The notes under the pieces are model-generated. The model saw only the letters and a program-made list of their open reading frames with translations. It was not told where the DNA came from and ran no database searches. This document shows, piece by piece, positions 11,008 through 58,907 of a stretch of DNA of 64,000 nucleotides. The translations under genes and the position numbers were made by a program. This DNA comes from an uncultured bacterium (GTDB lineage Bacteria; Verrucomicrobiota; Verrucomicrobiia; Verrucomicrobiales; DEV007): NCBI GenBank assembly GCA_963977015.1, contig CAXBMO010000012.1, positions 102,602 through 166,601 on the forward strand, in the 5' to 3' direction. Within the stretch, counting starts at the first letter, position 1. Each line of letters opens with the position of its first letter.

Positions 11008-12527
11008 AGAGGAGGGCGGTGGATCGTTTCCAGCAGTTCCCGGTGAGTGGGGAGCGAATCGGCCAACGATTGATGACGCTGCCGAATTTGATCGAAGATC
11101 GGCAGGACTTTCTCGAAGTTGGAAACATCAGCGCGAGTCGCGTGACGACGGGGAAGCTGGTCTGCGGCGGCGAAGAGAGAATACCACGTTGCGTCAGGAG
11201 CGAAGTCGCTCAAATGAGGTTCAATCCTTCCGTTCTCCAGATAGGTTTGCAGGCCCTGGTCCAGCGTGCTGGAAAGGGGCGCCTTTCGGCACTGTTCCCA
11301 GACGGCGCCTGGTCGGCGGCTCAAGCGATAGTGTGCCTGGGCAAAGTCGCGTGCCGCCTGGTAGGACTTTCCAACCATCTCATTGTATTGGGAAGAGAGC
11401 GTGGGATTGAATTCGCGGTCCGGAAAATAATCCAGCAGGAGGCCAAGACTTCGTTGTAACAACGAAACAGGAGGGCTGAGCAAGGGATCGATAAAACCGG
11501 CAGCGCTTCCGAGTGACACGCAATTGGCAGACCAAAACCGGGTTCGCCGACCGTTCTTATATTGGAAATGGATCGGCTCAGCACTTCGCCCCTTGATGGA
11601 GAAGTCCTGACTGACGTTCTCATGAAGAGCGGCAAACGTCTGGTCCGGCAGAGTGTGCTGGCTGGAGGTAAGGGATCCCCATTGAAGGCGATGACTGAGC
11701 GGCAACTTCCAGTCCCAACCCTCGTTGGTGGCCATGACGGTGGTAAAAGGAGGTGACTGCTCGTCGCGAGGCAACCGCAGAAAGACGGCCTGATCCAGAG
11801 GAAGGGCGTCGGACCAACTTTGCCAGGGATCTCCCAACGCTTTCTCAATCAAGGTGCCGGATGAACCTGTGCAATCGAGATACAGATCGGCGGTGAAGGT
11901 CCGGCCTTGAGAGGTTTGGACGCTTTCGATTGAGCCATTAGCTCGCAGAGTCGGCTCGACAACACTGTCAAAGACTTGCTCAACGCCTTCTCCAATGGCG
12001 AGGGTGGTGAGGAAGTTTTTGAAGGCGGTGACGTCGACGTGATAGGAGATGGCTCCGGATTGGATGACCGGTGACTCTCCTTGAAAGGGCCGCGGTGCCT
12101 TGGATTGTTCACAAAGCAGCGCGTGGAGCGAGTAGTCGGTATAGTTGCCTTTCGATTGGCCGCAATGCAGGGCTTTGAGCCAAAATTGAAAGAGGTCGAG
12201 CCCATCGATGGAACTATTGAGTCCTCCGATAGGCTCCCAGAATCGGGAACCGTCCTGGACCCAGTTTTGGAACTGGGTTGCGACCTTGTAGGTGGCGTTG
12301 GATTGGCGCATGAAATGCGCCTCATCCAATCGCATGGCGAAAAGATACTGAAGGAGCGGCGCGGAAGAGCAGACTTCATCCGGATCAGGCTCGACGGAGT
12401 CAAGCAGGGTGATCTGGCAGCCTGTTTTCCCCAGCGTACGATTCAAGTACGCCGCCGACATCCAGCCGGTCAGGCCGCCACCGGCGATCAGGATCTTTTC
12501 TATCCGGCCTGAAGTTTGCGTGGGCAA
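11004..12527 (-). CDS. Flavin-dependent (tryptophan-type) halogenase
   Basis: N-terminal GxGxxG (ILIAGGGLTGW), halogenase WxWxIP motif (GWDWKLPL) and a PrnA/RebH-like length. A TTG start lies 12 nt after the upstream stop. Its stop overlaps the stop of convergent gene B (TTAA at 11004-11007). Confidence 0.8.
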   Translation of the reverse strand: MPTQTSGRIEKILIAGGGLTGWMSAAYLNRTLGKTGCQITLLDSVEPDPDEVCSSAPLLQYLFAMRLDEAHFMRQSNATYKVATQFQNWVQDGSRFWEPIGGLNSSIDGLDLFQFWLKALHCGQSKGNYTDYSLHALLCEQSKAPRPFQGESPVIQSGAISYHVDVTAFKNFLTTLAIGEGVEQVFDSVVEPTLRANGSIESVQTSQGRTFTADLYLDCTGSSGTLIEKALGDPWQSWSDALPLDQAVFLRLPRDEQSPPFTTVMATNEGWDWKLPLSHRLQWGSLTSSQHTLPDQTFAALHENVSQDFSIKGRSAEPIHFQYKNGRRTRFWSANCVSLGSAAGFIDPLLSPPVSLLQRSLGLLLDYFPDREFNPTLSSQYNEMVGKSYQAARDFAQAHYRLSRRPGAVWEQCRKAPLSSTLDQGLQTYLENGRIEPHLSDFAPDATWYSLFAAADQLPRRHATRADVSNFEKVLPIFDQIRQRHQSLADSLPTHRELLETIHRPPL

Positions 12528-22857: not shown

Positions 22858-24612
22858 ATGCTCCTCCGATTAACCCCCGCTCTTCTCTGCGCACTCTTCG
22901 GAGCGTCGCACCTCGCGAACGCCGACGTTCTTGAAGTCCTCGGCACGCCGTGCCAGGTGCTGCCATCCTCTCAACAAGTCTCGATCCAGCCCGAATCGGA
23001 TTCCGTCGTCGGGGTCACCACAGCGCCGGGCAAGGACGGCTATCCCGGTGTTCGCATTGGTCCCGGCAACGGCAAAACTCTCGATGCGTCCGCCTTCAGC
23101 CACCTGGCGGCGACGGTTCGCAACACCGGCGCTGAGCCGTTCACCATTCACCTGCGCATCGACAATCCGGGTGATTGGAGAAAGTCGCCGTGGAATGTCG
23201 AAAAACTGCGCGTTGAGCCCGGCGAAGCTGCCGTCGTGCGAACCTTTTTCGGGTATCAGCACGGGTTCAAGAAAGGCTATGCCCTCGACCCCGCCCGCAT
23301 TTCGGAGATCCAACTCTTCACCGGCAAAGCCGACGAAACCCCCATCAGCTTTCGCCTCGAATCCCTCTCCGCCGCCGGAACTCCGGGAGAGTCGCCGCGT
23401 CTCGCCGAGGCGATCCTCAACACGATTGAACCGCAGGACGGAATTCTCTATCAAGCCGGCGTCACCGATCCAAACCAAGTCAACATCACCCGATCTGGTG
23501 AGCAATTTCAGGTCCGACCCGTCGAGGGACAATGGAACCTGCGCAACTACAACCAGATCACCGTCACCCTGCGCGATGGAACGCAGGTGAACGTCCGCGC
23601 CATCGACCACGGAAATCGCGGCACCGCCTTGATGCCATCCCCCGTGCTCTTTCGTCGCGACGAAGTCTGGCACGGACACATCGGCAAGGGGGCTTCCGAA
23701 TCGCATCCCGTCTTCGACAGCCGCCGTGTCAAAGCGATCGAAATCAGTGGCGGCCCGAACGGAGCCGAAATCGAATCCATCATCGCCGGTGTCCACGTTT
23801 TTCAACGTCCCGACTGGTTCGGCAAACGACCCCCCATTCCCGGCGAATGGAAACTCACCCTCGAAGACGAATTCGACCAACCTGCGATCGACGCCCGAAC
23901 CTGGAACGTCGCCGGTCCCAACTACTGGGGCGCCAAAGAACTCACCCATTGGAGCCGCGAAAACGTCATCCTCAAAGACGGCACCGCTTCGCTCTGCATG
24001 GAAAAGAAATTCGGCCATCACAACGACGACACCAGCCAACACACCAGTCCCTACACCGGCGGCTACCTCGATACCTACGACAACTGGCGCCAACGCTACG
24101 GCTACTTCGAGGCCCGTATGAAACTTCCCACCGCCGACGGACTCTGGCCCGCCTTCTGGCTCATGCCCGACGCCGGTCGCGAACTCGGCCCCATGTGGAA
24201 ACGCCAGAAGACCGAACCGCACGGCATGGAATTCGACATCCTCGAGCATCTCACCGGCTGGGGCCCCTACCGCTACCACATCGCCATGCACTGGGATGGC
24301 TACGGCAAAAACCATCAATCCACCGGCGCCTCCAGCATCTACTTCTCGCCGGATGAAGACGGCTTCGTCACCTCCGGCCTTTTGTGGGAACCCGGCCGCG
24401 CCGTCTACTACGTCAACGGTCGCGAAATTGGCCGTGTTGAAAGCGATCGCATCTCCGACATCCCCGGCATGATCATCTTCACCCTCCCCATTGGTGGCTG
24501 GGACAATCGCCCCCTCAACGACGCCCAACTCCCCGCCCACTTCACCATCGACTACGTCAGAGTCTGGCAACGAAACGACCTCGCCTCCGAGGCCGATGGC
24601 CACTACGAGTGA
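22858..24612 (+). CDS. Glycoside hydrolase family 16 protein with N-terminal accessory domains
   Basis: Signal peptide. The C-terminal GH16 region has GYFEARMKLP, WPAFWLMP and the catalytic ExDxxE motif (EFDILE). Confidence 0.75.
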   Translation: MLLRLTPALLCALFGASHLANADVLEVLGTPCQVLPSSQQVSIQPESDSVVGVTTAPGKDGYPGVRIGPGNGKTLDASAFSHLAATVRNTGAEPFTIHLRIDNPGDWRKSPWNVEKLRVEPGEAAVVRTFFGYQHGFKKGYALDPARISEIQLFTGKADETPISFRLESLSAAGTPGESPRLAEAILNTIEPQDGILYQAGVTDPNQVNITRSGEQFQVRPVEGQWNLRNYNQITVTLRDGTQVNVRAIDHGNRGTALMPSPVLFRRDEVWHGHIGKGASESHPVFDSRRVKAIEISGGPNGAEIESIIAGVHVFQRPDWFGKRPPIPGEWKLTLEDEFDQPAIDARTWNVAGPNYWGAKELTHWSRENVILKDGTASLCMEKKFGHHNDDTSQHTSPYTGGYLDTYDNWRQRYGYFEARMKLPTADGLWPAFWLMPDAGRELGPMWKRQKTEPHGMEFDILEHLTGWGPYRYHIAMHWDGYGKNHQSTGASSIYFSPDEDGFVTSGLLWEPGRAVYYVNGREIGRVESDRISDIPGMIIFTLPIGGWDNRPLNDAQLPAHFTIDYVRVWQRNDLASEADGHYE

Positions 24613-24640
24613 CCGGTTGGGGAACCGCAGATGGGAATCT

Positions 24641-25408
24641 TTGGACTGCGGAAGCCTGCTGCCGCTATTTCAGAAAGCAGCCCTGCTGCTGGACCAATTC
24701 CAAATACGGATTCAACTTCTGACAACGTAAAACGGCCCCTTATCCCGATGATTAACCAGCCTGCTTCACTTCCAACGAATGAACAATCAGGCACGGGTTC
24801 CCGCGATTGGCCTCACGCCCCACCACATCGATTGGGTGGAGCCGGCGTTTACTTTGTGACGGCTCGCGCCCGCGATCAGCGTCATATCCTCGCTGATGAC
24901 ACGATGAAATCCTGGTTTCAGAAACTCCTGTTTGTCGTGGTTGATGAGTTTGGTTGGAAACTTGAGGTATGGGCCATTCTATCCAATCACTATCACTTCG
25001 TTGCGCATAGTCCCGAGAATGGAGAGGATGGTAAAACGCTGAGCCCGTGCCTGCGAAAGCTTCATAGCCTGACGACGAAGGAGTTGAACCGTCGAGAGAA
25101 CCAGTCAGGCCGAACTCGCCTTTGGCAGAACTACCGCGAAACTCACCTGACGTATCAACGAAGTTATCTGGCGCGGTTGAATTATGTCCACCAAAACGCG
25201 GTTCATCACGGTTTGGTGACGGACGGGATTGACTATCCGTGGTGCAGTGCCGCGAAGTTTATGGATTCAGTGACTCCCGCCTGGAGCAAAACCGTTGCGA
25301 GTTTTAGGTATGATGAAATTGCGAAGGAGGACGGCGAGTAAGGCTTGCCCTGATGGGGCGGCAGCAGGGCTGCCTGCTTGAAGGCGGCAGCAGGCTGCAG
25401 CAGTCCAA
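24641..25408 (+). mobile_element. RAYT/IS200-like HUH gene flanked by ~52-bp imperfect inverted repeats (REP-RAYT-like unit)
   Basis: The left arm 24641-24692 is the reverse complement of the right arm 25357-25408, by hand alignment. Two perfectly conserved 13-nt cores are shared: gcagcagggctgc and gcggcagcaggct. Confidence 0.5.
24748..25341 (+). CDS. IS200-like / REP-associated tyrosine transposase (RAYT)-like HUH protein
   Basis: HUH motif SNHYHFVAH and Tyr motif LARLNYVHQNAVHHGLV. ATG 24748 is preferred because the 24631 start would run through the left inverted repeat. The paralog at 47192-47767 starts at the equivalent WPHAP position. Confidence 0.65.
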   Translation: MINQPASLPTNEQSGTGSRDWPHAPPHRLGGAGVYFVTARARDQRHILADDTMKSWFQKLLFVVVDEFGWKLEVWAILSNHYHFVAHSPENGEDGKTLSPCLRKLHSLTTKELNRRENQSGRTRLWQNYRETHLTYQRSYLARLNYVHQNAVHHGLVTDGIDYPWCSAAKFMDSVTPAWSKTVASFRYDEIAKEDGE

Positions 25409-26331: not shown

Positions 26332-26587
26332 GAAAGGGGTTGAGATTCGGCATTCACCTTCCAACTCCTTTGCCGAACCTCAAGCAAAACCTGACGAACC
26401 AACCTTCGCTGGAAGGAGACCGCCGATGACGCACCTTGGACGGCTCGAAAGGTGCCCCGTTGGAACCTTGGGCAACTCATTCTCGATGACAAAGCGAGTC
26501 TATCCGTCGGAGTTTCTACACCGATTGATGATGCCAACCGTGGTGAAGAACTTCATCAAATAGGGCCACCCGTGACCATGAAATCGG

Positions 26588-28888
26588 TTACTTCGCGGCC
26601 AGGCCGGGATCCTTGCCTGCGGCGGCTTTTTTGAAGGCGGCGATGACCTGGCCGGGAGTGATGACCTCGTCGAGGAAGAGGATCGGTCCTTCCGGTGGGA
26701 TCACCATGTAATAGGGAATGGTGGGGTGATCGAAGTGATGGAGAATCTCATCGACGACTTTGTTCGGCTTGGTGATATCGGCGAGCATCGGAACGATGTT
26801 GCGCGCTTCAATTTCGGTGCGGACTTGGCTGGAATTTACGAAGACAACTGTCTCGTTTTGTTTGCAGGTCAGTCACCAATCTGCGGTGAAGTCGATGAAG
26901 ACGGTTCGTTTCTTACTTCGATGTTGAACGATTTGGACCGGGTTGATTTCGTCCCAGAGAATCCCGTACTTCACGATCTTGTCGGCGACGGCTTTCGGTT
27001 TGGAGGCGAGGAGCGCTTCGGCTTCCTGACCCTTTTTGAAGCCGGTTTGGGTCAGGAAGATGAAGAGGCCGGCAAGGGCGATGGCGGCGATGCGACCCAT
27101 CCACTGGGTTTTGACGGATTTGTAGGGCAGGACGTAGCGCCCATAAATCCAGACGGCCATGGCGAGAATGACGAGGCCGTAGAGAAAGTAGCTGAGGGCG
27201 TCGCGACCCGCGAGCTTGGCATAGACGCTGGTGAGCCAGACGACGGTCGCGAACATGGGGAAAGACATGAACTGTTTGAACGTCTCCATCCACGCGCCCG
27301 GTTTGGGGAGCTTCTTGATGAGGGCGGGGATGTAACTGAGCAGGACGTAGGGAAAGGCGAGGCCGAGGCCGAGCGCGGTGAAGATGGCGAACGAGGCAAT
27401 GGCGGGAGCGCTGAGCGCATAGCTGAGGGCCGAAGCCATGAACGGGCCGGTGCAGGGCGTGGCGATAATGACGGCGAGGACACCGGAGAAAAAGGAGCCG
27501 GAGTAGCCTTCCTTGCTCTGCAGTCCCTGACCCGCACCCGTGAGGGAGGTGCCGAATTCGAAAACACCGGCGAGATTGAGGCCGAAGACGAAGAGAATGA
27601 CGACCATCGAGACGACGAAGAGGGGATTCTGCAATTGGAAGCCCCAGAGGATGTTGTTCCCGGCCAGTTTAATGGCGACGACAATCGCGGCGAGAATCCA
27701 GAGCGATACAAGCACGCCCAAGCCGAAGACGAGTCCGTGTTTGCGCACTTTCGCTTGGTCTTCCCCACTTTGCTGGACGAAGCCCATGATTTTGATGCCG
27801 AGGACGGGAAAGACGCAGGGCATGAGGTTGAGGATCATGCCGCCGAGGAAGGCGAAGACGAAGAGTGCGGGGAAGGGCAGGGGACCCGCCTTGGTGTCGG
27901 AGGTAGAGCCGGCTTCGACGGCGCCCCAGCTGAGCATGGTTTGGACCGCTTCCTGTTGAGCGGCGAAGTCGGGCTTGGGAGCGGCGGCTTCCGGAGTTTC
28001 GGATGGGGTTTCCGTTTCGGCGATGGAAGCGGGTTTGGGTTCGGTTTCGGCTGACGAATCGGTGGAGACGAGGAAAACCTGACCGGAGGCGGATTTGAAG
28101 AGGGCGTTGAACCCGGCCGGAACTGCATCGACACCGCTGGCGATGGGCTGCGTGAAGGTGATAGTTGAACCGGAGACGGCAACGGTTTGGGGCTGATCCG
28201 CATCAACGATCCCCGATTCGGTGGGCCAGAGGAGAAGATCTTTGGGGCTTGAAGCGGCGGAGGCGAGATCGAGCGAAGCGACGAGGTTGCCGTTTTCGAT
28301 CGCGGCGCTGAACTGGTAGGAATCGGGAACTGCGGGAAGTTTGGCGATCGCAGCCTGAATCGCGGGAGACGCAGGCGACGGCGCGGCGGGTTCCGCCTTG
28401 ATCGGCAAGTCGAGCGTTGCGGCCTGGTTCTTCGGACTGAGACAGGACTTGTCGTCGCAACTGAGCCAGCTTGCGGTGGCCGAAAGGTTGGCGGTGCCGC
28501 CGGGAGCGAGATCCGGTGAAACCTGGATTTCCGTAAGGATCCAGGCCTCGGACTCGTAGCCGTAACCGATCTGGCCGGCCGTCGTGAACTGCTTGGGCGT
28601 GGAATATCGGCTTTGCCCGGCGGTGAATCCTTCGGGGAGATCCAGATTCACCGTGGTTGGCAATCCGCTGACGCCGGGGTTGGTCCAATAAATGTGCCAG
28701 GGCTCGTCGATGGTGATGTGGACGGCGAGTTGAAAGCTGCTGCCAGGCTGGACCGAGGCGACGTCCGCTTTGAGGAATGGGGTGGCGGGCTCCATTCCTC
28801 CGAGAAACTGGGCCTGCAGATGGGCGGGCTGGAGCAGGGCGAAAGCGGCCAGGAGCGTGAAAGGAAGAAAGCGGAGGTTCATCATCAA
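26588..28888 (-). CDS. dsbD: DsbD-family thiol:disulfide interchange protein, predicted selenoprotein (in-frame UGA read as Sec)
   Basis: ORFs 26873-28888 and 26588-26788 are in the same frame, separated by a single TGA. The upstream part has a DsbD N-domain (WLSCDDKSC) and a TM core with LMPCVFPVL and ATPCTGPF. The thioredoxin domain reads FIDFTADW-[TGA]-LTCKQNETVVF...MLADITKPN...HPTIPYYMV, matching E. coli DsbD gamma ([13 protein letters not shown]...). Confidence 0.65.
26838..26856 (-). promoter_or_regulatory. Candidate bacterial SECIS hairpin
   Basis: The minus-strand RNA ACGAGACAGUUGUCUUCGU starts 17 nt after the UGA. I hand-folded it as 5 bp (A-U, C-G, G-C, A-U, G.U), a bulged C, 2 bp (A-U, C-G), and apical loop AGUU containing a G-U. 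Confidence 0.4.
26873..26875 (-). other. In-frame UGA at the first Cys position of the thioredoxin CxxC motif (candidate Sec codon)
   Basis: The minus-strand reading is gat tgg TGA ctg acc tgc aaa, which translates as D W U L T C K. Confidence 0.6.
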
Positions 28889-34339: not shown

Positions 34340-37300
34340 CTACTGATCAACCGTCTCCTTCTTGCCATCATCATCCACACTCGTCTCGACATTCCAAAGC
34401 CGGATAGTGTTGTCGTCTGAAGCACTCGCGAGTCGCGTCCCGTCCGGGCTCCAGGCCACGCTCATGACTGAATTGGAGTGGCCTGTGAGGGGGGCGCCGA
34501 TGGCATCCCCACTAACTGCGTCCCAGAGCCGGATCGTCTCATCGTCCGAAGCGCTGGCGAGCCGGGTTCCGTCCGGGCTCCATGCCACGCTGTTGACCGA
34601 ATCGGAGTGACCGGTGAGAGGGTCGCCGATCGCGGCCCCGCTGGCCGCGTCCCAGAGCCGGATCGTGTTATCTACTGAACCGCTCACGAACCGGGTTCCG
34701 TCCGGACTCCAAGCCACGCTCATGACCCAAAAGGAGTGGCCGGTGAAGGGCTCGCCGATGGCGGCCCCGCTAGCTGCGTCCCAAAGCCGGATCGTGTTAT
34801 CACGTGAAGCGCTCACGAGTCGGTTCCCGTTCGGGCTCCAAGCCACGCTCATGACTGAATCGGAGTGGCCGGTGAGGGGTTCGCCGATCGGGTCGCCGCT
34901 CGCTGTGTCCCAGAGCCGGATCGTGTTATCACGTGAAGCGCTGGCGAGCTGTCTCCCATCTGGGCTCCAAGCCACGCTCATGACCCAAAAGTGGCCGGTG
35001 AGGGGCTCGCCAATCGCAGTCCCGCTCGCTGCGTTCCACAGCCGGATCGTGTCATCAACTGAACCACTCACGAGCCGGGTCCCATCCGGGCTCCAGGCCA
35101 CGCTTTTGACCCAGAAGGAGTGGCCGGTGAGGGGCTCGCCAATCGCGGCCCCGCTCGCTGCGTCCCAGAGCCGGATCGTCCCATCGTCTGAGGTGCTGGC
35201 AAGGCGGGTCCCGTCCGGGCTCCAAGCCACGCTGTTGACCGAACTGACGTGGCCGCTGAGGTGCAATGAGAAGCTTCGAAAATTTATCCCTGAATTCGTA
35301 GAGAGGAATTGGGCGAAATTCCCGCGTATGACCAGTTCCGAACCGTTCGGCGAAAATTGCATGTCGTCGCCCCTCCCATAGACCTCTGATTGCACCAAGT
35401 GATCTCCCGCCGGCGTCCAGAAACTCAAACTGCCGACCGCTTGCTCATTCTTGGCTTGTTTTGCATAGACTGCAAATACCGTCGGCGAACGGCTTGTAAA
35501 GGCCAGATTAACTGCCTTCCTGGTAGGGTCTTGATTCAGTTCTTCGAGAAAAGAAGGCAGTTCCCGTTCCCGAAGCTGCCCTCCTGGTTCCTTCTCAGGG
35601 TTCGGGGTGTGGAAAAACTGAACATCTCCGCCTTCGTCCAGGCTCGCTAGGAAATCTTCCTCAGGATAATGCGGTATCGGCCGATCTCCTGCAAAAGAAC
35701 GAGCTCTCGCTCGGAAATCGTCCTCAGGATAAAAAGCGATCTTCTTCACCGGTTTGCGGTGCGCCCGGGAAATCGCAACCGGCTTCCGGATATCGGTATT
35801 CCATACCTGGATGACCCGATTCTCCAGTCCCACTGCAACGAGAGGAAGCCGAGGATGGAATGCCAGGCAGCGTACCGGTTGGCGGCTGAGGCGGAACTTT
35901 TGCAGTTGGCTTCCGGTCTCGATGTTCCAGAGGACGAAGAAACCGTTCATGGTCCCTCCCGCCAACTGGGTTGCGTTGCTATTGATGGCGACCGCGGAAA
36001 GTTCGCCGGCCGGACTTTTCAGAACTTGGCGCAGGCGCAACTGACCTTCCGGCGTTTCTAGATCGAAAACGGAAATGATCTGGTAATCGCGAACCGCCGC
36101 CAGTATCGCCTGCCTTGGAGGCCCCGCAGCAACGAAATTCCAGGTCTTGTCTGGAGCGGTCAATTCGCTGAGAAATTCGAACGATTCCAAATCCCAGAGC
36201 TTGATCCTCCCATTGTCAACGGCCACGAACTGCGAGTTGCCTTGTCCATCCGGTTTTGGAACCACGAAGGCCGTGTTCTCGGCGACATTGGCCTTCGGAA
36301 TTCTGATGAATTCCTGGTAAATAAAGAGAGTCAGCAAAAAGACGACACCTCCGAGGAATGCAAAGGAAAGCGCGTCGAGGTTGAGGCGGGCCAGCCTGCC
36401 CCGCCGTGCACCACGGCTGGCCCTTAAGACAGGACGAAAAGCGAGGAAAGTAGCGACGAGCGTTGCGATAAAGCCCCCCAAGATAACCAGGTCCGAGGAC
36501 CCGGAGAATCCCCAAACGATACTACCGATTCCGCCACTAAATAGAAGCGGAGTGACGAATGCGAGCCGATTTCCTTCGCCAAGCTTTGGTAGACTCAGCG
36601 TCGCGATCCGGGAACTCTTCCGAGCCTGCGCTTCGACATTTTTGCGGTGGTCCTCCAACCAGGATGCTCCCGCCTGCGATGAATCGAGGAATTCTACTTC
36701 TTCAACTTTTTTGGTCCGGTTGGGTTGAATCCGGGTAAGGACATCGTGGGCTTCTTGCAGAGGCGAGAACGCCTTGTAAAAGCCAAAGAGGACTCCCAAC
36801 AGAGTGAAAAACAACAATGTGAAGAATGGTGTGTCTTCGCTTGGCAGGAGGAAGTCGGAAGCCCAGGTCAAGCCAATCAGCAGTGCCAATCCCGCCCATC
36901 CTAGGGTGCTCGCTCCGAGCGGATGTTCGGTGGCGCGGGTCAGGCTGAGGGCAAAAAAAATGGCCGTGGCGCTGAGGAAGACGGCGAAAACCAGGGCCGG
37001 ATGGGCGAACGGCGAATCCCCCGCCCAAATGTCCTCTAGCAGCGGGATGGCCCGGGACTGATGCGAAAAGAAGCCGTAAAACCCGGCCAGAACAATGACG
37101 GAAAGGCCGAGCAACTCGGTGCCCCAGAGGTTTTTTCGGCTTCGGGCCGGGTCCCGAAAGCGCAGCGGCCCCAACATCATCGCCAGGCCGGTGAGCGCCA
37201 ACGCCGGAGAGAGGACATAGGTGGGATTTTCTTCCACTTCCACCCTAAACATTGCCAATCCACTGAAGAGCAATCCAGTGATGAACCACCCAGCCCGCTT

Positions 37301-39022
37301 CAAACCGCTGAGGAGGTTTCGCTTCCACGGAACGTTTGCGGCATCGCGCTCTGCACCTTCATCCTCCGCCAGGCGCTTCGCGGAAGTGGTGACGTGGAGG
37401 CTGAGCAGCTCGCGAACCGGTTCCTTCTCGAAATAAGAGGTGTGGATCAGCTCGTCGCCCCGCAGCTCGTCCTGGACGCTGTGGACGACGGCGGACAACT
37501 CCGAGGCGCCCCAGGCCAGTTGGGAGAGCTCGGCCCGGGTTTTGGCGAGGATTTCGGTGGAGCGGCGCCCGATCGCTTCGTTGGCCGAGTCGATCATTTC
37601 CTGGTTCACTTCTTTGGGCAGCGGTGGGTAGCGGTAGCCTTCGACCACGACGGGTCCTTCGGTTACGTCGACCAAGTCGCATCCCAGCCGATTGTGCCCC
37701 TGGGCGCCTTTGGCGACGCGGGAGAGGAGATAGCCGTCGAGCCGCGGGCTGAGAAAACGATTTACCAACGGGGCGAGGAGCATCCGGACGAAGAAGCGGT
37801 AAAACCGGATGAAGCGGTCTGATTCGAAGACTGTTTCCGTGGGAATGGTGAGCCGGGGGACGATTTGTGCTTTGGTGATTTTGGTGGTGCCGCGTAGACC
37901 GCTGATGGCTTCGTCCTGTGTGCACCAGAGCCCGAGCCAGCGGTCGCCAAACTCAAGCATGGCCTGGTTTTTGGCCCGGATTTCGCGATAGACGTTCCGG
38001 GCCTCGGTGCGGACGGCTCGGGTGAAGAGGTAAACGGCGACAAATGGCACCAAAAGAAGCAACACAGCGAAAAATAATTGTGCAATAGCCCAGAATTTAT
38101 CCAGCGGTGTCGCCGGATCGATGGTTCCCGGCTTAGTGCTGCCGAGGGCGGCTCGGGCCATTTCCCCGACCGATATTCGGAGGTTATCCAATGGGTTTGT
38201 TCCAGTCTGGAGCTTTCCAGCTGGCCCCGGTAGCTTGGTGTCCCTTGCTGATCGGGAACGGAGAATTTCGGATTCGGGATCTCGTTCGAAGGCGGATGGA
38301 GTGGAGTAGTTCGTGGATTCGGAAGGGACCCCGATGGTCTGGACCCATTTGAAGACGGGATTGCTTTCGTCGGTCCACCGCTGGAGTTGCCACCAACCGA
38401 TGAGAACGCTGACGAGGAGGCTGACGATGAGCGCCAGGATGGTGGCGGATTTGCCATACCAACTCCCGATTTTTGCGCCTTCGAAGTGGAGGAAAGGCGT
38501 GCCAACCGTGGACCAGGATTTGAGGTGCTTCAGCTTGAGCTGATCCGCGTTTTTGGCCGATTTCCAGCGGCGAAGAACGGATTGTTGCAAGGCATGCCAT
38601 ATGGCGGACCCGCCGTGGCTATGGCCGATGAGGTGGTATTCCCGCCCTTCCTTTTCCAGTTCGATGAGCCGGTCAAGGAGGTCGATGCCAGCCTTGTAGC
38701 GCTCGCGTTCGGTGTTCTCGCTGGACCACTTGAAAGTGCGGAGATGCGGCTTTATCTGGCCATTTTCGTCGAGAGCGTCAGGTTCGTTGGCGAACGCTTT
38801 CTCGTCCCCACCCATGACGTAGCCTTCGGGCTCCAGCCTTTGTTTGAGATCACTCCAAACCGGACTCTTGACCTGCCACCAATCGTTTCCCTCGTCATTG
38901 GTTTCCGGAGCACGAACTCCTTGTTCCTGCCCGTTATTGTCATCCAGGTTCGAAAACGTTCCGTGGATGAGGAGGACGATCGGCTTCTTCGAGTTCGGGA
39001 TTGGTTCCTGTTGCGCTGCCAC
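34340..39022 (-). CDS. Multidomain protein: alpha/beta-hydrolase (lipase-like), polytopic membrane region, divergent WD40 region, and 7-blade near-identical WD40 propeller
   Basis: GTG start. VLLIHGTFSN and nucleophile elbow LIGHSHGG are present. About 10 or more hydrophobic helices lie between aa ~190 and ~950. No P-loop was seen. The C-terminal repeats are GHSxxVxSVAWSPDGTRLASASDDxTIRLWDAASGAAIGEPLT. Confidence 0.8.
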   Translation of the reverse strand: MAAQQEPIPNSKKPIVLLIHGTFSNLDDNNGQEQGVRAPETNDEGNDWWQVKSPVWSDLKQRLEPEGYVMGGDEKAFANEPDALDENGQIKPHLRTFKWSSENTERERYKAGIDLLDRLIELEKEGREYHLIGHSHGGSAIWHALQQSVLRRWKSAKNADQLKLKHLKSWSTVGTPFLHFEGAKIGSWYGKSATILALIVSLLVSVLIGWWQLQRWTDESNPVFKWVQTIGVPSESTNYSTPSAFERDPESEILRSRSARDTKLPGPAGKLQTGTNPLDNLRISVGEMARAALGSTKPGTIDPATPLDKFWAIAQLFFAVLLLLVPFVAVYLFTRAVRTEARNVYREIRAKNQAMLEFGDRWLGLWCTQDEAISGLRGTTKITKAQIVPRLTIPTETVFESDRFIRFYRFFVRMLLAPLVNRFLSPRLDGYLLSRVAKGAQGHNRLGCDLVDVTEGPVVVEGYRYPPLPKEVNQEMIDSANEAIGRRSTEILAKTRAELSQLAWGASELSAVVHSVQDELRGDELIHTSYFEKEPVRELLSLHVTTSAKRLAEDEGAERDAANVPWKRNLLSGLKRAGWFITGLLFSGLAMFRVEVEENPTYVLSPALALTGLAMMLGPLRFRDPARSRKNLWGTELLGLSVIVLAGFYGFFSHQSRAIPLLEDIWAGDSPFAHPALVFAVFLSATAIFFALSLTRATEHPLGASTLGWAGLALLIGLTWASDFLLPSEDTPFFTLLFFTLLGVLFGFYKAFSPLQEAHDVLTRIQPNRTKKVEEVEFLDSSQAGASWLEDHRKNVEAQARKSSRIATLSLPKLGEGNRLAFVTPLLFSGGIGSIVWGFSGSSDLVILGGFIATLVATFLAFRPVLRASRGARRGRLARLNLDALSFAFLGGVVFLLTLFIYQEFIRIPKANVAENTAFVVPKPDGQGNSQFVAVDNGRIKLWDLESFEFLSELTAPDKTWNFVAAGPPRQAILAAVRDYQIISVFDLETPEGQLRLRQVLKSPAGELSAVAINSNATQLAGGTMNGFFVLWNIETGSQLQKFRLSRQPVRCLAFHPRLPLVAVGLENRVIQVWNTDIRKPVAISRAHRKPVKKIAFYPEDDFRARARSFAGDRPIPHYPEEDFLASLDEGGDVQFFHTPNPEKEPGGQLRERELPSFLEELNQDPTRKAVNLAFTSRSPTVFAVYAKQAKNEQAVGSLSFWTPAGDHLVQSEVYGRGDDMQFSPNGSELVIRGNFAQFLSTNSGINFRSFSLHLSGHVSSVNSVAWSPDGTRLASTSDDGTIRLWDAASGAAIGEPLTGHSFWVKSVAWSPDGTRLVSGSVDDTIRLWNAASGTAIGEPLTGHFWVMSVAWSPDGRQLASASRDNTIRLWDTASGDPIGEPLTGHSDSVMSVAWSPNGNRLVSASRDNTIRLWDAASGAAIGEPFTGHSFWVMSVAWSPDGTRFVSGSVDNTIRLWDAASGAAIGDPLTGHSDSVNSVAWSPDGTRLASASDDETIRLWDAVSGDAIGAPLTGHSNSVMSVAWSPDGTRLASASDDNTIRLWNVETSVDDDGKKETVDQ
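34391..35254 (-). repeat. Seven tandem near-identical WD40-coding units (129 bp; unit 3 is 126 bp)
   Basis: I counted the units directly in the translation. DNA strings such as gtcccagagccggatcgt and ccgtccgggctcca recur with 129-nt spacing. Confidence 0.85.
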
Positions 39023-53038: not shown

Positions 53039-56000
53039 ATGAAAACCCCCTTCATTGTCCTCCTGGCGATCCCTTCGCTCCTGGTTGCCGAAAGTTCGTG
53101 GAAAACCACGCCCTTGATCGGCGACTTCCATGCGGAAGGTGCGGGAGTCGGTGACATCAACGGGGATGGCAACCCTGACATCGCCTACGGTCCGTTCTGG
53201 TTCGCTGGCCCGGATTTCTCGAAACAGAATCGCTTTGCGGATGGAGATCCTTTCGATGGCGGAACCGGGTATTCCGACAATTTTTTCAGCTTTGTCAGGG
53301 ATTTCAACGGCGATGGGAAGAACGACATTCTCGTGTTCGGATTTCCCGGAAAGTCAGCGCGGCTTTATCTGAACAGCGCTGCGGAACGTTGGGAAATGAT
53401 CGAAGTCGCCGATCAGGTTGCGAATGAATCTCCCCATCTCATCGATCTGATTCCGGGAGGGGTTCCCGAAATCGTGTGTGCCCGCAGCAAGACCTACGGC
53501 TATTACGAGGCGGGTGAGGATGCGACGAAACCCTGGACCTGGCACACGGTCTCCGGTCCCAACGAAGCGGCGACGCCGTTTGGTCATGGACTTGGGGTTG
53601 GCGATATCAACGGGGACGGGCGGGCGGACGTCGTCGAACGGATGCACTGGTATGAGCAACCGGCCAATCCCGGCGATGGCCCGTGGAAGAAACACAACTG
53701 GGCCATGGTTCCCTACGGCGGCGGTGGCGCGCAAATGCTGGTTGATGATGTTGATGGCGATGGCGACAACGACATCATCACCTCCCTGAATGCGCACGCC
53801 TATGGAATTGCCTGGTTCGAGCAGGTGTCGCCGGGCAAGTTTGCGCGTCACAACATCGTTGGGCAAACCTCGACCGAGAATCGGCATGGTGTTGCGTTTT
53901 CCCAACCCCATGCGCTCGCCCTGGCCGACATGGACGGCGATGGCCGGAACGATTTTGTGACCGGGAAACGCTACTTTGCGCACAAGGGCCGGGATCCGGG
54001 AGGATTGCAGGATGCGGTGCTTTACTGGTTTCGGAACACCGTTCGTGGCGGCGAGATTGAGTTTGTGCCTCACCTGGTCGATGATGACTCCGGCGTTGGA
54101 GTCGAGGTGAAGGTGGTGGATCTGAATGGGGACGAGAGGCCTGACATTGTCACCAGCAGCAAGAAGGGGCTGATCGTTCATACGCAGACCGGGGCGGGGC
54201 ATGCGGCGATGGAGTCCTGGAAGGAGGAGTCGCGCAGAACCCAGGATACCTACGGAACGAAACTTTCGCCCGAAGCGGCTCGGGATCAGACGGATGTTCC
54301 CGATGGCTTCTCGCTCGATCTGATTGCGGCGGAACCGAACGTCACCCAGCCGATTGCGATGACGTTCGACGCCCGTGGCCGCATCTGGGTGATTGAAGGT
54401 CACACGTATCCGCAACGGGCTCCCGAAGGGGAGGGGCGGGACCGCATCATCATTCTGGAAGACCGCAATGCGGACGGCAGCTTTGAAACGAGGAAGGTTT
54501 TTGCCGAGAACCTCAACCTTGCGAGCGGGATTGAGATTGGGTTCGGGGGCGTCTATGTCGGCGCGGCGCCCTATTTGCTTTTCTTTCCCGACAAGAATCA
54601 GGACGATGTGCCTGACGGAGAACCTGAGATCCTCCTCGACGGCTGGGGATATCAGGATACCCACGAAACGCTCAATGCCTTCACCTGGGGGCCGGATGGT
54701 TGGCTTTATGGATGTCACGGCGTTTTCACCCATTCCAAAGTCGGCAAGCCGGGAACTCCCAATGATGAACGGACGCGGATCAATGCCGGAGTCTGGCGGT
54801 TTCATCCCGTCAGCAGGCAGTTCGAAGTTTACGCGCATGGCACGAGCAATCCCTGGGGCGTCGACTTCAATGAATACGGCGACTGGTTTGTCAGCGCCTG
54901 TGTCATCCCGCATTTCTATCATCTCAGTCACGGAGGGCGTTACCAGAGACAGGCGGGACAGCATTTTGATCCGTTCACGTTTGATGACATCAAGACGATC
55001 GCAGACCACGTGCACTACCTCGGAAATATTCGGGCGCTCAAGGATGTCCGCGGGGGCCGCCTTTCGGAAGAGCAGGCCGATACGGCCGCGTTGGGTGGTG
55101 GCCATGCCCACTGTGGGCTGGCGATCTACGATGCGCCCGAGTTTCCCGCAGCGTTCCGTGGTGAAGCGTTTTTTCACAATCTTCACGGGCATCGCCTGGT
55201 CCGGGAACAACTGGGTCACGACGGTTCGGGGTATCTCGCCAGGCATCGTCCGGATTTTGTGCTGACCAACAATCATGACTTTGTCGGCGTGGGCGTGATG
55301 CAGGGGCCGGACGGCGCGCTGTATTATTCGGACTGGGTCGATCCACAAACCTGTCATCACCGGGATGTCGAAGTTTGGGATCGGGCGAATGGGCGCATTT
55401 TTCGGGTTCGATACGGCGAGGCGAAAACGACGGTCACCAACCTGCTGGTCCAGTCCGACGTGGAATTGGTGGCGACATTGGGGCATGCGAACTCGTTTTT
55501 CGCGCGCCAGGCCCAGCGTCTGCTTCAAGAGCGGGCGGCCGCCGGGACTTTGGATGGGGAAGCGGTCGATTTGGCCCTGACACAGTTCGAAAGCCGTCAC
55601 TCGGGCGATGTCCCGATGCGCCTGCGGGCGTTGTGGGCCCGCCACGTCACCGGCCTGCTCAGCGGGGAGCTCCTGATGGCGGCGCTTGCCGACCCGAGCG
55701 AACATGTTCGCGGCTGGGCCGTGCAGTTGGCTCAGCCCAACACAGCGATTCTCACTCAACTCGCCACCCTGGCGAAGCATGATGATTCATTGATCGTGCG
55801 CCGTTATCTTGCATCCAAACTGCAGTTCCTGCCGCTCGATGATCGTTGGGACATCGCCCGGGGCCTCATCGCGCATTCCCGCAGTCAATTTGATCGCAAT
55901 ATTCCGTTTCTCGCCTGGTACGGAATTGCGCCGCTGGTCGAGGCGGACCCTGCCAGCGCGCTTCAACTGGTTGGTCAGACCCCGTGGCCGCAGCTCAAGG

Positions 56001-57649
56001 ATTTCATCACCCGGCGTGCTGCCGTTTTCCCGGAAGGTCGAACGGCGATCACGGTTTCGCTCTCGAGGGCTCCCAATGCCAAAGCCTTCAGTGCCCAGTC
56101 CAATCAGCTTCTGCTCGCGCTTTCCAACTTGCCTCCGGTCGAAACTCCGGATGCCTGGGACAAGGCCAAAGCGAAGGGAAAATCGTTTGGGAAGAATGCG
56201 CAGGTTGAGGCGGTTCTCAGCCGTATGGGGGCTCGGTTTGGAGATGAGGAATTCTTTCCCCAGTGGCGTCGCGTGGCGAGAAATAGTAAGCAGAAGATGG
56301 AGGCGCGGATTGAGGCCTTGAAGTTGCTGACCGTGGGCAAGGATCCCGAGATCGGAACACTCGCCCGCGAAGTTCTGAGTGTGCCAGCTCTTCGGCCCGT
56401 CGCCATCGCCGCACTTCGTCAGGATCCCGGCAAAGAGACGGCGGACGCATTGGTGAGACTGGTTCCGAATCTCTCATTAAAGATGCGCAACGAGGCGATC
56501 AATCTTCTCGGGACGAGACCGGAGATGGCGTTGGTTCTCCTGCGGGCGGTTGATGAAAAGCGCCTGGAGGCGTCCTTGATTTCTCCGGTGATGTTGGATC
56601 AATTCGACCGATTCGAGAACGAGGAAATTGATGCGATTCTGGATCGGAACTGGGTGCGAGGAGGTGGGGGGATTGATTTGGCCCAACTCACCGTGGCGAT
56701 TGGCCAATGGAGGAAAAAGCTCAATCCGAGAGTCATGGCAAGGGCGAACGCGCAACGTGGTCGGCAGACCTACGTCATGACCTGTGGCACCTGTCATCAG
56801 CTCTTTGGCGAAGGAATCGCGTTGGGGCCGGACCTGACCGGATCGAATCGTGCGGACCTGGGCTACATTCTCGAGAACGTTCTCGCGCCAAGCGCCGTGG
56901 TGGGGAAAGACTACCTTCTGAACATCTTTACGTTGAAGGATGGATCAACCGTCAGTGGAATGATCGAGAAGGAGACTCCGGAGTTCATTCAAGTCTCGAT
57001 GGCGGGAGGCACGAAAACCGATGTTCAGGTTACCGAAATCAAGGAACGCCAGGAAGTCGCGCAGTCGCTCATGCCTGCCGGTCTCTTTGATGCGCTGCCG
57101 CTGGGGCAGGTTGCGGATTTGGTGGCTTATCTGGCTAGTCCGACTCAGGTTTCCCCAACGGGGAGAGGGAACGTCGCGGCTTCTCCCCAGAGCGCAGTTC
57201 CTGCTCCAGGCAACGGTGTCATGCGAATCGAGGCGGAGGATCTTGCCGCGAAATATCAGCCTCAGGGTGGAAACGGGAAGCCGCAGAATATGGAACACTT
57301 TCAGGATGCGTGGTCCGAAAATCGGCAGTTGTGGTGGGTCGGCGGAAAGCCCGGTGAGGTCTATACGTTGAAGCTGGATGGCGTGGGACCGGGGATGAAG
57401 AATCTTACCCTGTTTCCCACCACCGCGCGAGACTACGCCCAAGTGAAGATCGCCATCAATGGCCAACTCCAGGAAGCGGACTTTTACTCAGCAGATGTTC
57501 GCCAGGGCACGCCGCTTCGATTCGAAGGTGTGAACATCAGCCCGAGCGAACCCTTGCAAATCGACATTCACATCACCGGCAAAAACGAAGCGGCGGTTCC
57601 CCGTTACATGGTTGGGATCGATCGGATCGAGATTGAAGGCGCAGACTAG
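53039..57649 (+). CDS. Giant fusion protein: FG-GAP/VCBS repeats, PVC-type 'membrane-bound dehydrogenase' domain, HEAT repeats, c-type heme-binding domain, and a C-terminal beta-rich domain
   Basis: Signal peptide. GDINGDGNPDI, DFNGDGKNDI, GDINGDGRADV, DVDGDGDNDI. FSLDLIAAEPNVTQPIAMTFDARGRIWVIE. CGTCH at nt 56783-56797, followed by LGPDLTGSNRADLGYILENVLAPS. Confidence 0.8.
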   Translation: MKTPFIVLLAIPSLLVAESSWKTTPLIGDFHAEGAGVGDINGDGNPDIAYGPFWFAGPDFSKQNRFADGDPFDGGTGYSDNFFSFVRDFNGDGKNDILVFGFPGKSARLYLNSAAERWEMIEVADQVANESPHLIDLIPGGVPEIVCARSKTYGYYEAGEDATKPWTWHTVSGPNEAATPFGHGLGVGDINGDGRADVVERMHWYEQPANPGDGPWKKHNWAMVPYGGGGAQMLVDDVDGDGDNDIITSLNAHAYGIAWFEQVSPGKFARHNIVGQTSTENRHGVAFSQPHALALADMDGDGRNDFVTGKRYFAHKGRDPGGLQDAVLYWFRNTVRGGEIEFVPHLVDDDSGVGVEVKVVDLNGDERPDIVTSSKKGLIVHTQTGAGHAAMESWKEESRRTQDTYGTKLSPEAARDQTDVPDGFSLDLIAAEPNVTQPIAMTFDARGRIWVIEGHTYPQRAPEGEGRDRIIILEDRNADGSFETRKVFAENLNLASGIEIGFGGVYVGAAPYLLFFPDKNQDDVPDGEPEILLDGWGYQDTHETLNAFTWGPDGWLYGCHGVFTHSKVGKPGTPNDERTRINAGVWRFHPVSRQFEVYAHGTSNPWGVDFNEYGDWFVSACVIPHFYHLSHGGRYQRQAGQHFDPFTFDDIKTIADHVHYLGNIRALKDVRGGRLSEEQADTAALGGGHAHCGLAIYDAPEFPAAFRGEAFFHNLHGHRLVREQLGHDGSGYLARHRPDFVLTNNHDFVGVGVMQGPDGALYYSDWVDPQTCHHRDVEVWDRANGRIFRVRYGEAKTTVTNLLVQSDVELVATLGHANSFFARQAQRLLQERAAAGTLDGEAVDLALTQFESRHSGDVPMRLRALWARHVTGLLSGELLMAALADPSEHVRGWAVQLAQPNTAILTQLATLAKHDDSLIVRRYLASKLQFLPLDDRWDIARGLIAHSRSQFDRNIPFLAWYGIAPLVEADPASALQLVGQTPWPQLKDFITRRAAVFPEGRTAITVSLSRAPNAKAFSAQSNQLLLALSNLPPVETPDAWDKAKAKGKSFGKNAQVEAVLSRMGARFGDEEFFPQWRRVARNSKQKMEARIEALKLLTVGKDPEIGTLAREVLSVPALRPVAIAALRQDPGKETADALVRLVPNLSLKMRNEAINLLGTRPEMALVLLRAVDEKRLEASLISPVMLDQFDRFENEEIDAILDRNWVRGGGGIDLAQLTVAIGQWRKKLNPRVMARANAQRGRQTYVMTCGTCHQLFGEGIALGPDLTGSNRADLGYILENVLAPSAVVGKDYLLNIFTLKDGSTVSGMIEKETPEFIQVSMAGGTKTDVQVTEIKERQEVAQSLMPAGLFDALPLGQVADLVAYLASPTQVSPTGRGNVAASPQSAVPAPGNGVMRIEAEDLAAKYQPQGGNGKPQNMEHFQDAWSENRQLWWVGGKPGEVYTLKLDGVGPGMKNLTLFPTTARDYAQVKIAINGQLQEADFYSADVRQGTPLRFEGVNISPSEPLQIDIHITGKNEAAVPRYMVGIDRIEIEGAD

Positions 57650-57659
57650 AATTGAACGT

Positions 57660-58907
57660 ATGAATTATCGAAAACCCCTATTTACATCACTCGCCATGTT
57701 TGGCCTCCTGCCCATTCCGCTGGAGGTGAGCGCGGAGGACGTCAAGCTGATCGATTTGAACCAAGCGCGTCTCGAAAACATCGTTGAGATGGATCGCGAC
57801 GAGGCGCTGGAGATGTTGGTAAGCAAGATTGGGAAGAGTGACGACCCTGCGATTCAAGCGGCGCTGCTGAACGGCATTCTACTGGGCCTGGAAGGACGAC
57901 GTGACGTTGCCGCTCCTTCGGGGTGGGGAGAACTCAAAGCGAATTTGCAGGCCAACCCGGATTCACGGGTGCCGGGGCACGTTCAGAAGTTGAGTCAGGT
58001 GTTTGGCGATGAGCAGGCAACCCAACGAGCCATCGCGACGTTGAAGGATTCCACTGCGGATCCGAGCGCTCGCAAAAGCGCCCTTGCTTCGCTGTTGGCG
58101 CAACGCCGGATGGAACTGTTGCCGATCCTGGAGAAGTTGATCGATGAGGAGGCGTTGCGGACGGAAGCGATCCGTGGATTCACCACGATCGAATCTCCAA
58201 CGGCTCCCGCGTTGCTGTTGAAGCGCTTTCCCAAATACGACGTGGAGACGCAACGCACTGTGATCGAAACGTTGGCGACTCGAAAGCCGTATGCAGAAGC
58301 CTTGTTGGCAGCGCTCGATGCCAAGACCGTGCCTCGGGATGCGATTCCCGCCTATGTCGCACGCACCATGAGCACACTTCTCGGCGAGAAGTTCTCCTCC
58401 AAGTATGGCGTGCAGCCGTTGTCGGAAGACAAGGAGGCGATGATTGCCAAGTACAAGTCCATGGCGACAACGGAAACCTTGGCCAAAGCCGATGCCTCGG
58501 CTGGGCGCGTGGTGTATCAGAAAGTCTGCATGGCCTGTCATGTAATGTATGGTGAGGGTGGTTTGGTAGGGCCGGAATTGACGGGCTCAAACCGGGCGGA
58601 CCTGAACTATCTGCTCCTGAATATTCTCTATCCCAGCGATGACATTGCCGATGCCTACAAGATGGTCCTGGTGACGACGAAAGACGGACAGACGCTCGCG
58701 GGCAGCATTGCGGAAGAAGACGGTCAAAAGGTGGTTCTCAATATGGTGGGACAGAAAACGACCGTCTCGAAAAGCGACATCCAAAGTCGTGAAACTTCGC
58801 CGTTCTCGATGATGCCCGCCGGGCTTCTTCAAACTCTGAAACCGGAGGAGGTCGTGAACCTCTTCAAATACATGCAAACCAAAGCTCAGGTCAATCTTCC
58901 CAAATGA
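57660..58907 (+). CDS. HEAT-repeat / c-type cytochrome (PVC-type heme-binding domain) protein
   Basis: ATG 57660 and a signal peptide. CMACH at nt 58527-58541, followed by VGPELTGSNRADLNYLLLNILYPS. The stop overlaps the next start (ATGA at 58904-58907). Confidence 0.75.
   Translation: MNYRKPLFTSLAMFGLLPIPLEVSAEDVKLIDLNQARLENIVEMDRDEALEMLVSKIGKSDDPAIQAALLNGILLGLEGRRDVAAPSGWGELKANLQANPDSRVPGHVQKLSQVFGDEQATQRAIATLKDSTADPSARKSALASLLAQRRMELLPILEKLIDEEALRTEAIRGFTTIESPTAPALLLKRFPKYDVETQRTVIETLATRKPYAEALLAALDAKTVPRDAIPAYVARTMSTLLGEKFSSKYGVQPLSEDKEAMIAKYKSMATTETLAKADASAGRVVYQKVCMACHVMYGEGGLVGPELTGSNRADLNYLLLNILYPSDDIADAYKMVLVTTKDGQTLAGSIAEEDGQKVVLNMVGQKTTVSKSDIQSRETSPFSMMPAGLLQTLKPEEVVNLFKYMQTKAQVNLPK

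Follow-up and report, generated by a model that had tools for sequence, protein, structure and literature searches.

A DsbD-type reductase gene from an uncultured member of the Verrucomicrobiales with a probable selenocysteine codon at the catalytic position of its gamma domain

The exchange of selenocysteine (Sec) and cysteine at the CxxC motif of thioredoxin-fold proteins is a classic selenoprotein pattern. We examined a candidate for this exchange in a gene for a DsbD-type protein-disulfide reductase, which lies on the minus strand of a 64,000-nt stretch of DNA from an uncultured bacterium of the Verrucomicrobiales (contig CAXBMO010000012.1; the whole stretch is referred to here as the window) and is interrupted by one in-frame TGA. 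A selenoprotein family with a UxxC motif, termed 'thiol:disulfide interchange protein', is listed for Geobacter and Syntrophus (PMC1794560) and has been catalogued since 2004 (Kryukov & Gladyshev 2004). The Global Ocean Sampling (GOS) marine survey placed this UxxC family under cd02953, with 22 Sec against 2,098 Cys sequences, while Peng et al. (2016) recorded it in 14 organisms and reviews of 2022 and 2026 place it under pfam13098. At E <= 0.01 the window protein has a match to PF13899 but none to PF13098, and its close Cys homologues match both. Presumably cd02953 is the DsbD-gamma model, and we take the published UxxC family to be DsbD-gamma-like, possibly with the same lineage and the full alpha-beta-gamma architecture.

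From the evidence set out below, we put the probability at roughly 0.9 that a single gene at the window locus encodes a full-length alpha-beta-gamma reductase of the DsbD type in which the UGA is decoded as selenocysteine. A preliminary description, made from the letters of the window alone, had proposed a Sec-containing DsbD at this locus. Our results support that interpretation, although the case is less novel than was implied, because the UxxC family is already an established one.

Reading frame and domains of the DsbD-type gene

Two open reading frames (ORFs) had been described here as lying in the same frame with an offset of 285 nt, and this was confirmed from the sequence and its translation: a single minus-strand frame runs from an ATG to a TAA, and the TGA is its sole interruption (Table 1). 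The longer ORF (26873..28888) ends in ...KRTVFIDFTADW directly before the TGA. Past the TGA, the same frame reads LTCKQNETVVFVNSS..., or in fuller spelling LTCKQNETVVFVNSSQVRTEIEARNIVPMLADITKPNK..., until the TAA is reached 285 nt (95 codons) further on. The read-through product comprises 765 aa from ATG 28885, the start chosen by public gene callers (P0001, 670 aa), or 766 aa from TTG 28888 upstream, which is also possible. Public gene calls on the 272-kb Tara Oceans metagenome scaffold TARA_SAMEA4397295_METAG-scaffold_104, which contains the window, consist of a 670-aa DsbD-like protein and a 66-aa orphan, just as the preliminary description had predicted of standard annotation. The 66-aa ORF is an annotation artefact, being the C-terminal part of the gamma domain without its CxxC motif.

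With a Cys put at the TGA, the read-through protein gave Pfam matches to DsbD_N (residues 38-159), DsbD_TM (343-554) and Thioredoxin_7 (655-732), in that order. The NCBIfam model for the PRK00293 subfamily of DsbD (NF001419) spans residues 329-720, crossing the TGA, with a score of 126.9 bits that is below the curated cutoff of 330 bits. By this score, the window protein is a distant member of the DsbD family that lies outside the enterobacterial subfamily. Its alpha domain contains the Cys pair C143 (TGC 28457-28459) and C148 (TGT 28442-28444), both invariant in 27 homologues of the TGA type, that is, homologues with a TGA at the corresponding codon. The beta domain contributes C357 in the motif MPCVFP (TGC 27815-27817) and C478 in TPCTGPF (TGC 27452-27454), which are likewise invariant in TGA-type homologues. 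A hydropathy scan of this domain found seven clear hydrophobic segments, and a weaker, sub-threshold segment near residues 536-556 was recognized by eye. Neither Pfam nor NCBIfam gave a domain match over residues ~160-340, which separate the alpha domain from the first transmembrane helix. E. coli DsbD is not known to contain an insert comparable to this segment of about 180 residues.

The gamma domain matches PF13899 (E 2.6e-9, 37.5 bits against a cutoff of 27 bits) and is present only when the TGA is read through. In a PDB profile search with this domain, the top eight matches were all DsbD gamma structures (including 4IP1, 2FWE, 1UC7, 7AYE, 1VRS and 6DNL; best E about 3e-12); generic thioredoxins appeared only from 3.8e-6 onwards. 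The 'WC' of the gamma profile was aligned to the WCVAC of E. coli DsbD (ADWCVAC), so that the TGA corresponds to the first C, and the same codon aligns with 146 Cys-type sites in related loci. The claims that the frame is collinear with the DsbD gamma domain and that the TGA replaces the first Cys of WCxxC are thus borne out, the former also by the order of the Pfam domains and by the NCBIfam match across the TGA. The read-through protein has exactly six Cys or Sec residues (C143, C148, C357, C478, U671 and C674), matching the six redox-active positions of DsbD.

Conservation of the TGA, the downstream domain and the hairpin

We compared the window with the DNA of 160 related loci; the 7 kb past the right end of the window (L162) and a locus of the isolate chromosome CP144259.1 (L163) were obtained in addition. 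Homologues were searched once with the window read-through protein and once with an Akkermansiaceae-type member, and the best 120 clusters were considered in each case. The codon after ...TA.W is TGA in 34 of the 160 related loci and is TAA or TAG in none of them, and the 146 Cys-type sites have TGC (126) or TGT (20). Among the best 120 clusters found with the window protein, 86 are Cys-type homologues of 700-780 aa with W-C-x-x-C at the TGA position and a thioredoxin Pfam domain. Another 29, sharing 39-78% identity with the window protein (the identical cluster P0001 left out), are TGA-type homologues of about 650-685 aa that end at ...DFTADW (TA.W) and lack the thioredoxin domain. When the search started from the Akkermansiaceae-type relative, 113 of the best 120 clusters stopped at the same residue. 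The exact end point ...TADW is shared by at least 140 public protein clusters (90% identity), one of them from the closed genome of an isolate. The closed 6,344,798-bp chromosome of the isolate 'Verrucomicrobiaceae bacterium 227' (CP144259.1) carries a TGA-type DsbD (L163:10001-12226) that reads DYTADW-TGA-LICKQNESRVF; its annotation consists of a 'cytochrome c biogenesis protein CcdA' of 651 aa and an 80-aa orphan. The product of the window gene itself is present in identical form on three contigs from different sources. Among GTDB species representatives, the TGA occurs in 11 of 80, namely in metagenome-assembled genomes (MAGs) of Verrucomicrobiales and Akkermansiaceae and in one labelled Kiritimatiellia. 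A neighbour-joining tree with Fitch parsimony requires only two state changes and has a Cys root. By this result the Sec form is old, has been inherited stably and does not stem from scattered recent mutations.

The frame behind the TGA is conserved along with it. In 31/31 complete TGA-type genes (30 loci and the window) it remains open for 82-97 codons past the TGA, compared with a median of 85 in Cys-type genes, and orthologues are not truncated before the thioredoxin domain, an outcome that the preliminary description had considered. Four elements of the thioredoxin fold, namely the resolving Cys, an N-E...F segment, an A-D motif and the cis-Pro (I/L-P), are kept in all 29 distinct TGA-type downstream sequences, and genes that have diverged to roughly 40% identity still have the frame intact. 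The ratio of nonsynonymous to synonymous substitution for the downstream domain (dN/dS, median 0.46) is saturated, with dS > 1, and gives weak support only.

Some variation was seen around the codon and among the genes that carry it. Trp is not the only residue that precedes the Sec codon, as Thr or Gly is found in a few variants (L011:4447, L096:3196; clusters ending DYTADT, DYTAET or DYTADG), and four clusters have D-H-T-A-D-W at this place. One homologue (P0024, 667 aa) ends in ...GKDVLNRLHRRVVSDLQDQ in place of ...FIDYTAVW, which suggests a frameshift immediately ahead of the Sec codon, from a sequencing error or in a pseudogene. The TGA-type locus L003 (JAPYUI010000071.1) is labelled Kiritimatiellia, and the other named TGA-type loci bear the labels Verrucomicrobiales, Akkermansiaceae or Verrucomicrobiia; the odd label could reflect transfer, binning or naming. 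The final stop of TGA-type DsbD genes is TAA or TAG in 29 of 31, with TGA only in L004 and L087, in contrast to the genes of the window's own neighbourhood, about one third of which end in TGA.

Downstream of the TGA, a bulged 7-bp hairpin resembling a selenocysteine insertion sequence (SECIS) had been proposed, at a distance within the bacterial range. The fold was confirmed: the hairpin begins 16 nt after the A of the UGA and its apical loop 23 nt after the UGA. Bacterial SECIS (bSECIS) elements are described as having a loop of 3-9 nt, a stem of 4-16 bp, a G in the first two loop positions, a distance of 16-37 nt from the UGA and a minimum free energy of at most -7.5 kcal/mol (PMC13188914). 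The window agrees with this description, having an AGUU loop, 7 bp, a distance of 23 nt and -11.0 kcal/mol for a 60-nt fold (-6.3 kcal/mol for the hairpin alone), as do 22 of the 29 distinct TGA-type sequences but only 18 of 140 Cys-type sequences. When the same sequences were tested for a stem of at least 5 bp with the apical loop 26-33 nt from the T of the TGA, a hairpin was found in 26/29 of the TGA type and, at the corresponding position, in 9/140 of the Cys type. In the 26 TGA-type sequences its apical loop contains a G and it is placed 23-24 nt past the TGA. Stability relative to synonymous-codon shuffles was in excess in the TGA type only (mean z -1.09, against -0.05 in the Cys type; Mann-Whitney p = 4e-4). 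The stems differ from one subclade to another (GAGAC/GUCUUC, GAAGC/GCUUC, GAACG/CGUUC, GAGAAG/CUUCUC, GAGGGC/GUUCUC), with some compensating changes that alter amino acids, and the isolate CP144259.1 has UGAGAGC-CGUGU-GUUCUCA. Ungapped alignments of two subgroups show pairing in 100% and 96% of cells and changes on both sides in 3/6 and 2/7 pairs, whereas shifted registers of these alignments give only 28-67% pairing. The hairpin thus covaries and is associated with the TGA.

Table 1. Position of the gene, its domains and nearby elements in the window
Feature	Coordinates	Strand	Remarks
Recoded DsbD-type coding sequence	26588..28885	minus	765 aa from ATG 28885 to TAA 26588-26590; three-domain protein-disulfide reductase
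Signal-peptide-like N-terminal segment (MMNLRFLPFTLLAAFALLQPAHLQAQ)	28808..28885	minus	suggested by hydrophobic, AxA-like character of the translation
Alpha domain (DsbD_N, PF11412)	28412..28777	minus	E 1.6e-12; 47.9 bits vs 25-bit cutoff
Segment of ~180 residues with an acidic Pro-rich linker inside	27863..28411	minus	between alpha domain and first transmembrane helix
Beta transmembrane domain (DsbD_TM, PF02683)	27035..27862	minus	E 4.3e-17, residues 343-554; 62.6 bits vs 27.1-bit cutoff
Gamma domain, DsbD-gamma-type thioredoxin fold	26591..26926	minus	conserved cis-Pro motif (T-I-P-Y); Pfam match 26693-26926
In-frame TGA, predicted selenocysteine codon U671	26873..26875	minus	position of the first, nucleophilic Cys of the gamma WCxxC
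TGC, C674	26864..26866	minus	resolving Cys of the U-L-T-C motif; invariant in 29/29 distinct TGA-type downstream sequences
SECIS-like hairpin ACGAGAC-AGUU-GUCUUCGU	26838..26856	minus	7 bp, one bulged U, loop AGUU; overlies codons N-E-T-V-V-F-V
66-aa 'orphan' ORF	26588..26788	minus	tail of the DsbD frame, begins at an internal Met; gene called at L001 12098-12298
Terminator-like hairpin and T-run	26564..26577	minus	10 nt past TAA; weak evidence

Selenocysteine and the rival readings of the TGA

If the UGA is decoded as selenocysteine, known bacterial Sec insertion suggests that SelB carrying Sec-tRNA(Sec) would bind the hairpin just past the UGA and hand Sec to the ribosome, after which translation would run for 94 more codons to the TAA. 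The gamma domain, in the periplasm, would then have U-L-T-C as its active site. If the protein works like its E. coli homologue DsbD, electrons would pass from cytoplasmic thioredoxin to C357/C478, then to U671/C674, to C143/C148 and finally to periplasmic substrates. U671 would be the gamma nucleophile in the attack on the disulfide of the alpha domain, and the oxidized state of the active site would be a U671-C674 selenenylsulfide.

Several results weigh against this interpretation. We found no selA, selD or tRNA-Sec, and no confirmed selB, in the window, in the 7 kb that follow it on the right or in related loci totalling about 2.3 Mb, the remainder of the genome lying outside the search. 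The genes were sought by tblastn in the window and 161 loci with E. coli SelA, SelB and SelD queries, and ARAGORN detected no tRNA in the window and nine across all loci, none of them tRNA-Sec. Nor was another selenoprotein gene found, either in the window, after codon-usage filtering of in-frame TGAs, or in the flanks of TGA-type loci. Taken alone, the window hairpin (z = -0.25 against dinucleotide shuffles) is no better than chance, and its significance therefore comes from the comparison with relatives only. The registers of the hairpin vary between subclades. An Rfam scan returned no model match to the hairpin, and the whole window has no matches at gathering thresholds. Finally, the TGA-type locus L029 (Verrucomicrobiales MAG CBDDAB010000017.1; region 11833-11900) lacks a hairpin at the usual position (TGA+20), where its codons are N-Y-K-T-I-F. 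A perfect 11-bp hairpin, CACUCUUCCAG-GUU-CUGGAAGAGUG, is present in this locus at TGA+36..+60, and it may be a displaced SECIS, its loop being 43 nt from the UGA and beyond the 16-37 nt of the bSECIS range.

These searches also gave a few other matches. A SelB match in L088:13078-15966 proved to be CysN; its gene is part of a cysC-cysD-cysN cluster for sulfate activation, located 1-4 kb downstream of a TGA-type DsbD. A second tblastn match, in L120, is a candidate SelB fragment that the end of the contig truncates. A scan of all loci for read-through ORFs with CxxU or UxxC had DsbD as its sole survivor, and the remainder were alternate-frame artefacts. Within the window, a GH16-family gene (22858-24612, plus strand) ends in TGA and is followed by an in-frame ORF (24631-25341), but its domain has a normal end (…DYVRVWQRNDL…) and a Cys context is missing; we therefore regard this as coincidence and not as another recoding site. 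A permissive Rfam scan of 26560-26960 gave a single match, SOX2OT at E 1.5, which is attributable to chance. Peng et al. (2016, Table S2) list selenoproteins for Rubritalea marina and for two single-cell genomes of marine Verrucomicrobia; therefore, the Sec trait exists in the phylum.

Could the TGA be a true stop? The product would then be an alpha-beta protein without a gamma domain, similar to CcdA, and the downstream frame either a remnant in decay or a fragment that is expressed separately. Proteins of the CcdA type that lack a gamma domain do exist, all public pipelines annotate the locus in this way, and genes in this genome normally use UGA as a stop. However, a remnant would gather stops and frameshifts, yet the complete genes all stay open over the 82-97 codons and keep the catalytic C, the cis-Pro and the fold motifs. 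The interrupting codon is invariably TGA and never TAA or TAG, the only internal ORF that starts with Met (66 aa) has neither a CxxC nor an export signal, and the covarying hairpin goes with the TGA form. Because of the downstream frame, the fold motifs, the six redox residues and the tree, a truncated or decaying gene is incompatible with the data, and we regard a true stop as very improbable. A sequencing or assembly error is also conceivable, as the source is a metagenome scaffold and one base (A for C or T) would give back the Cys codon TGC or TGT. The identical product on contigs from different sources, and the recurrence of the TGA in 34 further independent loci and in the closed chromosome of an isolate, reduce the likelihood of an error to practically nil.

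The UGA might instead be recoded to a residue other than Sec, either to Cys, by way of a tRNA(Sec)-like tRNA(Cys) and SelB, or to Trp or Gly through local or genome-wide reassignment. Recoding from Sec to Cys by tRNA(Sec)-like tRNAs was reportedly described by Mukai et al. in 2016. UGA-to-Trp reassignment is reported in some Verrucomicrobiota (PMC13462651), and Sec machinery was not seen in the sequences searched. In this genome, however, UGA is an ordinary stop that ends 9 other called genes of 27, all of normal length and extended only briefly in frame, and TGG stands for Trp in 193 codons, which excludes a genome-wide reassignment. Moreover, the relay would be inactive with Trp or Gly as the CxxC nucleophile, and neither residue occurs there in any homologue. 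A SECIS-type hairpin is a requirement of the SelB route, for which Sec is by far the commonest cargo. Altogether, we consider non-Sec recoding to be very improbable. There is a very slim chance that these Verrucomicrobiota, lacking selA and selD, insert Cys or another residue at the SECIS-marked UGA through a tRNA(Sec)-like tRNA and SelB; if so, the 'UxxC' DsbD would represent a conserved, selenium-independent and hairpin-directed recoding of a stop codon.

Neighbourhood, significance and comparison with known systems

The neighbourhood genes (34340-39022, minus; 53039-57649, 58904-61216 and 61925-64000, all plus; and L162) include very large secreted or beta-propeller-type proteins (a 1560-aa WD40-like protein, a 1536-aa FG-GAP/DUF7133 protein and a 770-aa DUF7133/HEAT protein), two sulfatases and a gene like pyrophosphate-type phosphoenolpyruvate carboxykinase that runs off the right end of the window. 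Such a neighbourhood is typical of marine polysaccharide-degrading Verrucomicrobiota. The terminator-like hairpin past the TAA is consistent with a transcript end after the full-length frame, but it is weak evidence, with 4 such sites found in the region against 3.7 expected; the scan of the region found none on the minus strand between the TGA and the TAA.

Reading the TGA as a Sec codon has consequences for annotation, as public records describe at least 140 clusters as truncated proteins, named 'DsbD domain-containing' or 'CcdA', with an adjoining small orphan ORF, and read-through restores the six-residue redox relay. It would also provide a natural DsbD variant with a selenolate as the gamma nucleophile, and thereby a probe for electron transfer from gamma to alpha and from beta to gamma. 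Cys461 of E. coli DsbD, the counterpart of U671, has an unusually high pKa, and Sec at the gamma step should therefore alter reactivity markedly. If DsbD feeds periplasmic reduction (cytochrome c maturation, disulfide isomerization, repair of oxidative damage) in these Verrucomicrobiales and Akkermansiaceae, many of which come from marine metagenomes, those pathways would need selenium. The isolate with the CP144259.1 chromosome offers a cultured organism for experiments on a TGA-type DsbD.

TsoB (NF045694; Haft & Tolstoy 2025, cited in PMC13188914) resembles the window protein in having a membrane DsbD-type beta and gamma module within a selenoprotein. The window protein aligns to positions 186-546 of the TsoB model with E 8e-37. 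TsoB is similar to a rhodanese/DsbD fusion and has two Sec residues in a UxxxxU motif, whereas the window protein has a DsbD_N N-terminus and a single U in UxxC. Neither Pfam nor NCBIfam reported a rhodanese domain in the window protein. Since the score (126.5 bits) is also far below the cutoff of 805 bits, we rejected an identification as TsoB. Other UxxC selenoproteins, such as Sec-thioredoxin and the DsbA-like and DsbG-like proteins, share with the window protein a Sec at the N-terminal position of CxxC, and several of them are periplasmic thiol-disulfide oxidoreductases. These are small and soluble, while the window protein has its predicted Sec domain as the last module of an electron relay in a polytopic membrane protein.

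The nearest functional model is E. coli DsbD, known from gamma-domain structures (1UC7, 2FWE, 4IP1) and an alpha-gamma complex (1VRS). Both proteins have a signal peptide (in the window protein a segment with the character of one), an alpha Cys pair, two beta Cys in P-C motifs and a gamma WCxxC position, with six redox residues each. The window protein differs by the predicted Sec in place of the first gamma Cys, by the insert of about 180 residues between alpha and beta and by its low identity. The nearest selenoproteins are those of the 'thiol:disulfide interchange protein' family, with which it shares UxxC in a thioredoxin fold, abundant Cys homologues, marine occurrence and a downstream bacterial SECIS hairpin; the published cases are from Geobacter, Syntrophus and short GOS reads, and were compared with the window by description only (e.g. 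WP_011366075.1). In the accessible literature on this family we found no mention of a Verrucomicrobiota clade or of its size (at least 140 clusters), and no NCBIfam selenoprotein model captures the TGA-type DsbD clusters. The window gene thus belongs to an already-known kind of selenoprotein and does not represent a new system, and the TGA-type DsbDs possibly form a large, so far unannotated subfamily.

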